Assembly (NCBI RefSeq): GCF_044324785.1
Contig: NZ_CP172127.1
Length of the DNA: 64,000 nt
Direction: 5' to 3' (one strand)
From: Escherichia coli
Lineage (GTDB): Bacteria > Pseudomonadota > Gammaproteobacteria > Enterobacterales > Enterobacteriaceae
Position numbers and translations under genes: made by a program. This document shows positions 51,682 to 56,275 of this stretch, one piece after another. Position 1 is the stretch's first letter. Each line of letters opens with the position of its first letter. The notes under the pieces are model-generated. The model worked only from the letters and a program-made list of their open reading frames with translations, did no database searches and was not told where the DNA came from.

Positions 51682-52722
51682 ATGAAAAAGACAGCTATCG
51701 CGATTGCAGTGGCACTGGCTGGTTTCGCTACCGTAGCGCAGGCCGCTCCGAAAGATAACACCTGGTACACTGGTGCTAAACTGGGCTGGTCCCAGTACCA
51801 TGACACTGGTTTCATCAACAACAATGGTCCGACCCATGAAAACCAACTGGGCGCTGGTGCTTTTGGTGGTTACCAGGTTAACCCGTATGTTGGCTTTGAA
51901 ATGGGTTATGACTGGTTAGGTCGTATGCCATACAAAGGCAGCGTTGAAAACGGTGCATATAAAGCTCAGGGCGTTCAGCTGACCGCTAAACTGGGTTACC
52001 CAATCACTGACGATCTGGACGTATACACTCGTCTGGGTGGTATGGTATGGCGTGCAGACACTAAATCCAACGTTTATGGTAAAAACCATGACACCGGCGT
52101 TTCTCCGGTCTTCGCTGGCGGTGTTGAGTATGCGATCACTCCTGAAATCGCTACCCGTCTGGAATACCAGTGGACCAACAACATCGGTGACGCACACACC
52201 ATCGGTACTCGTCCGGACAACGGCATGCTGAGCCTGGGTGTTTCCTACCGTTTCGGTCAGGGCGAAGCAGCTCCAGTAGTTGCTCCGGCTCCAGCTCCGG
52301 CACCGGAAGTACAGACCAAGCACTTCACTCTGAAGTCTGACGTTCTGTTCACCTTCAACAAAGCAACCCTGAAACCGGAAGGTCAGGCTGCTCTGGATCA
52401 GCTGTACAGCCAGCTGAGCAACCTGGATCCGAAAGACGGTTCCGTAGTTGTTCTGGGTTACACTGACCGCATCGGTTCTGACGCTTACAACCAGGGTCTG
52501 TCCGAGCGCCGTGCTCAGTCTGTTGTTGATTACCTGATCTCCAAAGGTATCCCGGCAGACAAGATCTCCGCACGTGGTATGGGCGAATCCAACCCGGTTA
52601 CTGGCAACACCTGTGACAACGTGAAACAGCGTGCTGCACTGATCGACTGCCTGGCTCCGGATCGTCGCGTAGAGATCGAAGTTAAAGGCATCAAAGACGT
52701 TGTAACTCAGCCGCAGGCTTAA
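51682..52722 (+). CDS. ompA: Outer-membrane protein A OmpA, 346 aa
   Basis: ORF 51595..52722 trimmed to [21 protein letters not shown] (signal peptide); APAPAP hinge and C-terminal OmpA domain. Confidence 0.95.
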
Positions 52723-52735
52723 GTTCTCGTCTGGT

Positions 52736-52768
52736 AAAAAACCCCGCTGCTGCGGGGTTTTTTTTCGT
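52736..52768 (+). terminator. ompA rho-independent terminator
   Basis: AAAAAACCCCGC-TGC-TGCGGGGTTTTTTTT. Confidence 0.85.
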
Positions 52769-52797
52769 CTTTAGAAAATTGAACTGACTTTCGTCAG

Positions 52798-53250
52798 TTA
52801 TTCCTTACCCAGCAATGCCTGCAGATCCTGCTTCAAAGAAGACATTTTATTCGCGTATTTCTCTTTGTTTTCCGCATCTTCAATCAGCTGAACAATCGTT
52901 TCAGAAAGCGTTTTACCGCGACGCTGCGCAAGACCAGCCAGACGTTGCCAGACAATAAATTCCAGATCGATCGATTTTTTGCGCGTATGCTGGTGTTCCG
53001 CATTAAAATGGCGCTTCCGTCTGGCCCGAATGGTCTGCTTCATGCGATTGACCAGTTCCGGATTCATATGCTTATCAATCCAGTTATTTACCAGCACGGG
53101 TTCATTTTCCAGCGAGAGCAACACATCGACGGCTTCCTGGGCGGCACTGGCTTCTATGTAACGGGTGATTAACTCCCCTTCGCGATGCTTCTTCACCAGA
53201 TACTTCCATTTCCAACCGCTTTCAAGATTTTCAAGTTGTTGATATTTCAT
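52798..53250 (-). CDS. matP: Ter macrodomain organiser MatP, 150 aa
   Basis: Full [25 protein letters not shown]... Confidence 0.9.
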
Positions 53251-53435
53251 AGCGATCTCAATGTTACCGTGTAACTCTTTACAGAATATCAGCTTTTTGG
53301 GCCAGTGAAGAAAAGAATCTCCATCCTGTGAGCTTTAACGCCCATGCCAAGAGTATTGTCGGTGCTTTCTACGTGTGCTGTAGTGCCGGTTACGGTATAA
53401 TCGCGGCTTTGACAACAGACTAAAAAACATCAACT

Positions 53436-55196
53436 TTGACCATTACGAAACTTGCATGGCGTGACCTGGTTCCTGATACCGATAGCTATCAGGAAATATT
53501 TGCTCAGCCACATTTGATTGACGAAAACGATCCTTTATTCAGTGATACTCAACCGCGACTGCAATTTGCGCTGGAGCAGTTGCTGCATACGCGAGCATCC
53601 TCCTCTTTTATGCTGGCGAAGGCCCCGGAAGAGTCTGAGTATCTGAATCTTATTGCCGATGCCGCGCGTGCGCTACAAAGTGATGCAGGCCAACTGGTGG
53701 GCGGTCACTATGAGGTTTCCGGCCACACCATCCGCTTACGTCACGCAGTGAGTGCAGATGATAATTTTGCGACTTTAACGCAAGTTGTCGCTGCCGACTG
53801 GGTAGAAGCAGAGCAACTCTTTGGCTGCCTGCGCCAGTTTAATGGCGACATTACCCTGCAGCCAGGTCTGGTGCATCAGGCAAATGGCGGTATTCTCATC
53901 ATCTCTTTGCGTACACTGCTGGCGCAACCTCTGCTGTGGATGCGGCTGAAAAATATCGTTAACCGCGAGCGTTTTGACTGGGTTGCGTTTGATGAGTCGC
54001 GCCCTCTCCCCGTCTCTGTGCCTTCGATGCCATTGAAGCTGAAAGTCATTCTGGTAGGCGAACGCGAATCATTGGCTGATTTCCAGGAGATGGAACCAGA
54101 GCTTTCAGAGCAGGCTATTTATAGCGAATTTGAAGACACTCTGCAGATTGTCGATGCGGAGTCAGTAAGCCAGTGGTGTCGCTGGGTGACATTGACCGCC
54201 AGACATAATCACTTACCTGCACCAGGAGCGGATGCCTGGCCGGTACTTATCCGCGAAGCAGCCCGCTACACCGGTGAACAAGAAACACTTCCGCTTAGCC
54301 CGCAGTGGATCCTCCGCCAGTGTAAAGAGGTCGCCTCCCTGTGCGATGGCGACACCTTCTCCGGCGAGCAGCTAAACTTAATGCTGCAGCAGCGTGAATG
54401 GCGTGAAGGTTTCCTCGCTGAACGCATGCAGGATGAGATCCTTCAGGAGCAAATCCTGATTGAAACCGAAGGCGAACGCATCGGGCAAATTAACGCCCTT
54501 TCGGTCATTGAATTTCCGGGTCATCCACGCGCTTTTGGCGAACCTTCTCGCATTAGCTGCGTTGTGCATATTGGCGATGGTGAATTCACCGACATCGAAC
54601 GCAAAGCGGAGCTTGGCGGCAATATCCATGCGAAAGGGATGATGATCATGCAGGCGTTCCTGATGTCGGAACTACAGCTTGAGCAACAGATCCCCTTCTC
54701 AGCATCGCTGACATTTGAGCAGTCATACAGTGAAGTGGATGGCGATAGTGCCTCGATGGCTGAACTCTGCGCCCTGATAAGCGCCCTCGCCGATGTGCCG
54801 GTGAATCAGAGTATCGCTATCACAGGTTCAGTCGATCAGTTCGGTCGTGCCCAGCCGGTCGGTGGTTTAAATGAGAAAATCGAAGGCTTCTTTGCTATTT
54901 GCCAGCAACGTGAGTTAACCGGGAAACAAGGTGTCATTATCCCCACTGCTAACATTCGCCATTTAAGTCTTCACAGTGAACTGGTGAAAGCGGTAGAAGA
55001 AGGCAAATTCACCATCTGGGCAGTAGACGATGTGACTGACGCACTGCCGTTATTATTAAATCTGATGTGGGATGGCGAAGGCCAAACGACGCTGATGCAA
55101 ACCATCCAGGAACGTATCGCGCAAGCATCGCAACAGGAAGGACGTCACCGTTTTCCATGGCCATTACGTTGGCTGAACTGGTTTATTCCGAACTGA
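53436..55196 (+). CDS. ycbZ: Lon-like protease YcbZ (LonH), 586 aa
   Basis: C-terminal Lon protease domain with DGDSAS serine box (Ser438); no canonical Walker A seen. Confidence 0.88.
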
Positions 55197-55228
55197 TCGG
55201 ACTTGTTCAGCGTACACGTGTTAGCTAT
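55191..55228. promoter_or_regulatory. fabA promoter operators: FadR site AACTGATCGGACTTGTT and FabR palindrome AGCGTACACGTGTTAGCT
   Basis: Matches to the FadR consensus (ANCTGGTCNGANNTGTT) and the FabR inverted repeat about 40-70 nt upstream of the fabA ATG. Confidence 0.6.
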
Positions 55229-55264
55229 CCTGCGTGCTTCAATAAAATAAGGCTTACAGAGAAC

Positions 55265-55783
55265 ATGGTAGATAAACGCGAATCCTATACAAAAGAAGAC
55301 CTTCTTGCCTCTGGTCGCGGTGAACTGTTTGGCGCTAAAGGCCCGCAATTGCCAGCACCGAACATGCTGATGATGGACCGTGTGGTCAAAATGACCGAAA
55401 CGGGTGGTAACTTCGACAAAGGGTATGTTGAAGCAGAACTGGATATCAATCCGGATCTGTGGTTCTTCGGATGCCACTTCATTGGCGATCCGGTTATGCC
55501 GGGATGCCTGGGCCTGGACGCAATGTGGCAGCTGGTAGGGTTCTACCTCGGCTGGCTGGGCGGCGAAGGTAAAGGCCGCGCGCTGGGCGTTGGCGAAGTG
55601 AAATTCACTGGTCAGGTACTGCCAACAGCGAAAAAAGTGACCTACCGTATTCACTTTAAACGCATTGTTAACCGTCGTCTGATTATGGGCCTGGCGGATG
55701 GCGAAGTGCTGGTTGATGGTCGTTTGATCTATACCGCCAGCGACCTGAAAGTCGGTCTGTTCCAGGATACGTCTGCCTTCTGA
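55265..55783 (+). CDS. fabA: 3-hydroxydecanoyl-ACP dehydratase/isomerase FabA, 172 aa
   Basis: Internal ATG of ORF 55067..55783; [23 protein letters not shown]... Confidence 0.95.
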
Positions 55784-55810
55784 TTATAATCAGACAGAGT
55801 ATCAAAAGGC

Positions 55811-55840
55811 GAAACCTCCGCAATGCGGAGGTTTCTTTTT
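55811..55840. terminator. Bidirectional terminator between convergent fabA and rmf
   Basis: GAAACCTCCGC-AAT-GCGGAGGTTTC followed by TTTTT. Confidence 0.75.
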
Positions 55841-55852
55841 AAAGAGACAGAA

Positions 55853-56020
55853 TCAGGCCATTACTACCCTGTCCGCCATGGCTTCTCGCCAGCCTCCCAG
55901 CCATTGTGACCTTTGATTCAGCGTCTGATAGGGACACATTTCTTTTGAGCGTCCGGCGATGCCGGCCTGATAACCACGTTGATGTGCCCGTTCCAGGCGA
56001 TCTCGTTTTTGTCTCTTCAT
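55853..56020 (-). CDS. rmf: Ribosome modulation factor Rmf, 55 aa
   Basis: Hand-translated: MKRQKRDRLERAHQRGYQAGIAGRSKEMCPYQTLNQRSQWLGGWREAMADRVVMA; below the ORF-track cut-off. Confidence 0.85.
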   Translation of the reverse strand: MKRQKRDRLERAHQRGYQAGIAGRSKEMCPYQTLNQRSQWLGGWREAMADRVVMA

Positions 56021-56275
56021 GCCTCGTTTCCCTCATACTGGTTTCTGGTGGAAAAGAAAACAGTGATTACTAAATGTGCAATCACAGTTAAGCAATACCG
56101 CGAATCATAACTGCCGTCAATGCGCAAAATTCACGCCACTGTCATATTTGTGAGCTACACGGGCATGTCGGTTGTACAAAAAATGTGAAGAGGAACAACT
56201 TTTTCCGCAAGTTAGAAACAAAAAAACCGCCTCAGGCAACATACCGGAGACGGTTATATTTACAAATCTTTATGA

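Follow-up and report, generated by a model that had tools for sequence, protein, structure and literature searches.

YcbZ of Escherichia coli, a probable ATP-independent peptidase related to LonC and fused to a degenerate AAA+ module

The closest described relatives of YcbZ are the LonC peptidases MtaLonC and TTC1975, which have no ATPase activity and assemble into hexamers; they need neither ATP nor divalent cations for the processive degradation of unfolded proteins and peptides (PMC3391209). MtaLonC binds ATP-gamma-S through a Walker A-like motif, GPPSLGKHE (PMC3391209); binding of nucleotide, inhibitor or substrate drives it into a closed hexamer, and its heptamer has chaperone activity (PMC13069640). 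LonC is separated from LonB by a helical-hairpin extension (HHE), a type-specific insertion that serves substrate recognition and chaperone activity (PMC13069640), and is also defined by two insertions, CX3GLX(G/E) after the catalytic-lysine helix and hydrophobic-X2-A-hydrophobic (PMC3391209). The residue preceding the catalytic serine is an aspartate in LonB and LonC, and a proline in LonA (PMC9569914). According to PMC3391209, homologues of LonC also occur in Klebsiella, Salmonella, Vibrio and Yersinia, and the Lon proteins of E. coli belong to more than one subfamily; the title of one paper gives the name LonC to a Lon homologue of Pasteurellaceae.

The function of YcbZ is described in the literature as uncharacterised, and the literature that we searched contains no report of the purified protein, its biochemistry or its substrates. 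According to the accounts of Gagarinova 2016 given in PMC9508795 and PMC8848927, stop codons are read through more often in a ycbZ mutant, and a complementing plasmid rescues this defect. Inactivating ycbZ mutations arise convergently under erythromycin, and a reconstructed knockout resists erythromycin, chloramphenicol, tetracycline, puromycin, blasticidin S and several unrelated compounds (PMC7686311, PMC4079197); a Lon-like effect on acrAB regulation has been suggested (PMC4079197). In addition, the YcbZ protein is more abundant in a queuosine-deficient tgt mutant (PMC9508795).

The window analysed here is a stretch of 64,000 nucleotides of an E. coli chromosome, in which ycbZ and its neighbours are arranged as follows.

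52798..53250, minus strand: matP
53436..55196, plus strand: ycbZ coding sequence, 586 codons plus TGA, with the same boundaries in RefSeq strain 042
55265..55783, plus strand: fabA

The open reading frame at 53436..55196 encodes 586 amino acids from a TTG start and is E. coli ycbZ. It is divergent from matP and lies immediately upstream of fabA, just as a previous model-made reading of the sequence alone (hereafter the sequence-only reading) had described it; the gap to fabA is 68 nt. In the RefSeq record of strain 042, matP (-), ycbZ (+) and fabA (+) occupy identical coordinates at a DNA identity of 99.6%, and bases 53000-55800 were matched in 5,425 of 5,426 complete E. coli genomes. Conservation of the YcbZ clade begins at residue 1, which agrees with the TTG start. 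No obvious Shine-Dalgarno sequence precedes this start (AAAAAACATCAAC). A perfect TATAAT, seen by eye, is located at 53396-53401 (+), 34 nt 5' of the start, and a sigma-70 consensus scan of 52700-56100 reported no full promoter. The hairpin TTCCTGATACCGATAGCTATCAGGAA, with a 9-bp stem, occurs at 53470-53495 (+) within codons 12-20; the scan labelled it terminator-like, yet it is inside the coding sequence.

Database and structure searches place YcbZ among the Lon proteases, and its predicted domains are the following.

53436..54146, plus strand: degenerate AAA+ alpha/beta subdomain, about residues 1-237
54156..54443, plus strand: alpha-helical lid subdomain, about residues 241-336 (model helices 241-257, 265-279, 289-300 and 310-336; whole-length alignment to MtaLonC and TonLonB)
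54465..55079, plus strand: Lon (S16) protease domain, about residues 344-548

Pfam recognises AAA_32 ('LonB-like, AAA domain') at residues 140-225 (E 6e-14) and Lon_C at residues 435-539 (E 4e-10), so that the proteolytic domain fold that defines the Lon protease family (MEROPS S16) is present. The NCBIfam models give partial matches far below their cutoffs, both for LonB (86 bits, cutoff 517) and for endopeptidase La (29-31 bits, cutoffs 608-891). The BrxL model scores 9.5 bits (cutoff 628); a BREX or defence role through likeness to BrxL was ruled out on this score, on the lack of any defence gene context, and on the finding that the two share the generic Lon fold alone.

A search of PDB sequences with the single YcbZ sequence returned the MtaLonC/TTC1975 peptidase as the top match by a wide margin (E 1e-57; YcbZ 140-547 against residues 296-691 of the MtaLonC chain), and a profile of the YcbZ clade found it at E 7e-90. 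These local HMMER alignments, single and profile, reach MtaLonC only from residue 113 or 140 of YcbZ onwards and leave the N-terminal 112 residues unplaced; an hhalign comparison of profiles for those 112 residues is colinear and in register, as a weak match (P 0.0026, probability 11-11.5%). The AlphaFold2 model of the monomer, computed with 142 homologues, has a pLDDT of 95.1 and a pTM of 0.91. With Foldseek the whole model superposes on MtaLonC crystal structures with a TM of 0.82-0.83 and on LonB of Thermococcus onnurineus (TonLonB) with 0.71, while the whole-chain TM to LonA is only 0.3-0.4. The MtaLonC crystal models on which full-length YcbZ superposes comprise 581-603 of 732 residues.

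Because the Pfam assignments, the PDB sequence matches, the AlphaFold2 model and the Foldseek superposition agree, residues 1 to about 340 are assigned, as modelled, to a true AAA+ fold with an alpha/beta subdomain and a helical lid, and residues from about 344 to 548 are a Lon protease domain. The sequence-only reading had described a Lon-like protease without a P-loop; it was right about the motifs, and it overlooked the degenerate AAA+ module seen by Pfam AAA_32, the model and Foldseek. No transmembrane segment was found in YcbZ: the highest 19-residue Kyte-Doolittle window reaches 1.54 and falls within core secondary-structure elements, and the model has no extra hydrophobic segment, as for a soluble protein without a transmembrane insertion.

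The protease domain carries a complete Lon-type active site together with both insertions that define LonC.

54738..54755, plus strand: serine box DGDSAS, with catalytic Ser438 at 54747-54749 preceded by Asp437 (LonB/LonC type)
54861..54887, plus strand: lysine box GGLNEKIEG, with catalytic Lys481 at 54876-54878, aligned with the catalytic-lysine helix of MtaLonC
54900..54923, plus strand: LonC-specific insertion 1, CQQRELTG, residues 489-496, with C489 nearly invariant, from the alignment to MtaLonC
54981..54995, plus strand: LonC-specific insertion 2, LVKAV, residues 516-520, with A519 nearly invariant, aligned to VLEAV of MtaLonC

Both active-site boxes had been pointed out from the sequence, and both stand: DGDSAS occupies residues 435-440 with Ser438 encoded by AGT at 54747..54749, and the lysine candidate in GGLNEKIEG (residues 476-484) is Lys481. 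The sequence-only reading had also named loss of the Ser-Lys dyad in orthologues as evidence that would speak against it; Ser438 and Lys481 are instead 100% conserved (n=142). Invariant in all 142 sequences are G436, D437, S438, Q458, T463, G470 and K481, and the surrounding boxes are 90-100% conserved. Asp437-Ser438 matches the LonB-like active-site consensus. The family consensus of insertion 1 is CxxRGLTG, and E. coli YcbZ has a glutamate at the first glycine.

This degree of conservation bears on the possibility that YcbZ is mainly a chaperone, scaffold or regulator of, say, RNase E or the ribosome, and that its Lon-like domain, like those of RadA, ComM or BrxL, is a module for binding. 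A link to RNase E comes from a two-hybrid screen in which a YcbZ fragment was recovered as prey (PMC13232886); this prey comprises just the last 22 residues (565-586), and the screen was dominated by membrane proteins. The invariance or near-invariance of Ser438, Lys481 and the DGDSAS and NEKIEGF boxes across the 142 aligned sequences argues for retained catalysis, and the chaperone activity of MtaLonC needs the helical-hairpin extension, which is absent from YcbZ. We consider a non-proteolytic main function improbable, and we favour the reading of YcbZ as a peptidase.

The AAA+ module, on the other hand, has lost the residues expected of an ATPase.

53619..53642, plus strand: P-loop-equivalent site KAPEESEY, residues 62-69, located in the alignment of 142 sequences; in the model, the loop between strand 58-62 and helix 67-80
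53673..53705, plus strand: site of the LonC helical-hairpin extension, about residues 80-90, where the extension is absent in the same alignment
53889..53909, plus strand: degenerate Walker B strand GILIISL, residues 152-158, with Ser157 in place of aspartate; model strand 153-157

A regular-expression scan of all 586 residues found no GxxxxGK[ST], which agrees with what had been claimed from the sequence, and likewise no [AG]xxxxGK[ST] and no GK[ST]. Such an absence would be uninformative for an arbitrary protein; here it is meaningful because YcbZ has an AAA+ fold and many of its longer homologues carry such a motif. An exhaustive search collected 3,095 YcbZ homologues, which group by length at about 540-600 aa (YcbZ type), about 650 aa, about 710 aa (MtaLonC type) and about 800 aa. 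A motif [AG]xxxxGK near residue 60, within the first 130 residues, is present in 36 of 71 representatives of at least 700 aa versus none of the 38 YcbZ-sized ones. A MAFFT alignment of 142 sequences, reaching down to about 29% identity and including 44 of YcbZ size, locates the change. The P-loop columns of the long homologues read G-x-x-G-x-G-K/R after a hydrophobic strand (glycines 87, 88 and 87%, lysine 52%, arginine 37%); there the 44 sequences of YcbZ size read K-A-P-E-E-S-E-Y and conserve neither glycine nor lysine. In the model this segment occupies the classical beta1/P-loop/alpha1 position, so that the equivalence is based on the 142-sequence alignment, the predicted strand-loop-helix topology and the whole-chain structural superposition.

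The Walker B columns tell the same story. Long forms have aspartate (72%) or glutamate (17%) followed by alanine (80%); YcbZ-type sequences have serine (52), proline (15) or glycine (11) followed by leucine, and the position of the catalytic glutamate next to Walker B is a leucine in YcbZ. LonC is characterised by an AAA-like module in which Walker A, Walker B and sensor motifs do not work; YcbZ agrees with this in that its P-loop and Walker B residues are replaced, and the loss is more complete than in MtaLonC. The LonC helical-hairpin extension, in contrast, is missing from YcbZ: in the alignment a gap of about 130-230 residues, filled in homologues of 700-830 aa, falls between YcbZ residues about 84 and 85.

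A genuinely ATP-dependent YcbZ, whose retained AAA+ fold binds nucleotide at some non-canonical site, might be expected from the intact fold, from the binding of ATP-gamma-S by MtaLonC (PMC3391209) and from current names, 'AAA family ATPase' for the RefSeq ycbZ orthologue (L001, 3437-5197) and 'putative ATP-dependent protease' in PMC13232886 and PMC9508795. Against it, the P-loop glycines and lysine are replaced by the acidic KAPEESEY, the Walker B aspartate by serine and the catalytic glutamate by leucine, with the motifs lost across all 44 YcbZ-sized sequences, and relatives that keep a partial P-loop are also without ATPase activity (PMC3391209). Such an enzyme is very unlikely, and both names are probably misnomers, because the Walker A and B residues are wholly lost in the YcbZ clade. 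Our preferred reading is thus of a peptidase that works without ATP.

Gene order around ycbZ is conserved well beyond E. coli. The order matP(-)/ycbZ(+)/fabA(+)/rmf(-) is kept on two metagenomic contigs, L004 (3456-6564) and L006 (3369-6604), whose YcbZ homologues are 38-39% identical, and fabA is directly 3' of two other remote YcbZ-type representatives (among the L002, L003 and L005 loci). At L005, a YcbZ homologue of 662 aa is intermediate in that it retains part of the insertion, and the downstream ORF translates to the N-terminus of FabA. This intermediate and its conserved fabA neighbour suggest, from sequence comparison, a stepwise reduction inside one fabA-linked lineage. Between the convergent fabA and rmf, an 11-bp GC-rich hairpin with T-runs on both strands (55811-55835) looks like a bidirectional intrinsic terminator, and a strong hairpin of similar kind occurs 3' of ompA (52736-52763).

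No linked unfoldase or adaptor gene was found at the ycbZ loci examined, where the conserved neighbours are matP, fabA and rmf. This matters for the suggestion, which takes up the unfoldase partner mentioned in the sequence-only reading, that YcbZ is a proteolytic chamber to which folded substrates must be brought by another protein, an unfoldase or adaptor. With no motor and no substrate-recognition extension, it may be reasoned that folded substrates would need help. The suggestion found no support, however: a candidate partner gene is missing from these loci, the degenerate AAA ring would already fill the docking position of an unfoldase, and characterised LonC enzymes act alone on unfolded chains (PMC3391209). 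A dedicated partner consequently seems quite improbable, and we return to an enzyme that would act by itself.

The end of the protein is distinctive in its own right.

55092..55196, plus strand: clade-specific C-terminal tail, residues 553-586, with a Trp-rich end and the clade consensus WxLRWLxxF

The pLDDT of the model drops to 63-71 at this end. Ribosome profiling, reporter assays and cryo-EM have revealed a strong ribosome stall with Pro585 in the P site and Asn586 in the A site, one codon before the stop (PMC8848927). The last ycbZ codons in the window (55170-55196, +) encode WLNWFIPN and the stop, the same Trp579/Leu580 and Pro585/Asn586 context as in the published stall. The clade conserves the WxLRWL core of the tail; the Pro-Asn end is not conserved. 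The idea that the Trp-rich tail is a membrane-binding amphipathic helix, raised by the bias of the RNase E screen to membrane proteins, was dropped since the hydrophobic moment is unremarkable (0.3-0.5).

The same 3' end meets what may be regulatory DNA of the next gene. A 15-mer, CTGATCGGACTTGTT, overlaps the ycbZ stop codon TGA (55194-55196), and a near-palindrome, AGCGTACACGTGTTAGCT, follows directly (55193-55226, +); this pattern is unique in the window. The primer table of PMC4537474 contains an E. coli fabB promoter probe, fabB_ec-BD-F, with the same 15-mer as its reverse complement beside a similar palindrome, and according to its footnote the table uses highlighting for putative FadR sites and for palindromes predicted to be FabR sites. 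A putative fabA control region thus appears, as judged from these motifs, to adjoin the ribosome-arrest site and 3' end of ycbZ and to overlap them.

In our view YcbZ is likely to be an ATP-independent, ring-forming Ser-Lys peptidase of unfolded or unstructured chains, whose dead AAA ring would serve passively, as a scaffold or as a gate. The sequence-only reading had already proposed a Lon-like protease that keeps its Ser-Lys dyad and works without ATP, and the loss of the Walker A-like motif together with the invariant dyad (142 sequences) supports it. In this view YcbZ is a soluble Ser-Lys peptidase that belongs to the LonB/LonC lineage and carries a degenerate AAA+ module. By analogy with MtaLonC and TTC1975, it would assemble into a ring, probably a hexamer, enclosing the proteolytic sites, and would neither bind nor hydrolyse ATP while cleaving peptides as well as unfolded or intrinsically unstructured polypeptides; its AAA ring would not act as a motor. 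Protease activity, oligomeric state and ATP independence are in this case transferred from a relative that is 25-29% identical. Both assembly and substrate selection may differ from those of MtaLonC, because MtaLonC uses its Walker A-like site and HHE for these, and YcbZ is without both. The published genetics lead us to infer that its physiological targets could be tied to translation output or to regulators of drug tolerance.

A more specific and more tentative version, which we regard as possible although rather doubtful, sees the YcbZ clade as a separate and minimal branch of LonC, restricted to matP-bearing Gammaproteobacteria and always 5' of fabA, that supplies an ATP-independent peptidase for translation quality control. 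This branch would have lost the P-loop, the acidic residue of Walker B and the helical hairpin, and acquired a Trp-rich tail that also halts the ribosome translating it on the last sense codon. Its tasks could be to clear readthrough or aberrant products, or to control a factor that sets macrolide tolerance, and the arrest or the tail might couple the synthesis or location of YcbZ to the state of the ribosome. Whichever way YcbZ is used by the cell, with no extension and no nucleotide site it is a good minimal model for chamber assembly and substrate selection in ATP-independent Lon proteases. Because loss of ycbZ is repeatedly selected under erythromycin and alters readthrough, its substrates, once identified, would explain a reproducible route to antibiotic tolerance.

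Comparison with the described Lon-fold proteins places YcbZ as follows. LonA (E. coli Lon, mitochondrial LONP1) shares with it the S16 protease fold, the Ser-Lys dyad and an AAA+ module fused upstream; however, LonA has a proline before the catalytic serine, a large N-terminal domain for substrate binding and a functional ATPase, where YcbZ has Asp437 and a degenerate AAA+ module, and YcbZ does not fit the definition of LonA (endopeptidase La). Archaeal LonB (Thermococcus onnurineus, PDB 3k1j, 4zpx) is ATP-dependent with working Walker A and B motifs and a transmembrane insertion; of the LonB features looked for in YcbZ, namely Walker A (GxxxxGK[ST]), Walker B (hhhhDE) and the transmembrane insertion, none was found. 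With neither Walker motifs nor a membrane anchor, YcbZ is not a LonB, and it is not a LonA either. In BrxL, RadA/Sms and ComM the Lon-like fold is carried on active ATPases or helicases of DNA-related systems, whereas the AAA+ module of YcbZ is degenerate.

The nearest system remains LonC (MtaLonC, Meiothermus taiwanensis, PDB 4fw9, 4fwd, 7euy, 8k8v; TTC1975, Thermus thermophilus), to which YcbZ is only 25-29% identical. MtaLonC has the HHE, a Walker A-like motif (GPPSLGKHE) as its binding site for ATP-gamma-S or phosphate, and the Walker B aspartate, and YcbZ is without all three; the Trp-rich C-terminal tail, conversely, is specific to the YcbZ clade and differs from MtaLonC. In large part our observation restates known matter, as ycbZ is an annotated gene, Lon proteases of the LonC type with a dead AAA module have already been described, and this subfamily has been extended to Gammaproteobacteria in the literature. 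The one new point is that the clade of YcbZ is reduced, having neither extension nor P-loop, and YcbZ is best described as related to LonC by descent rather than as a canonical LonC.
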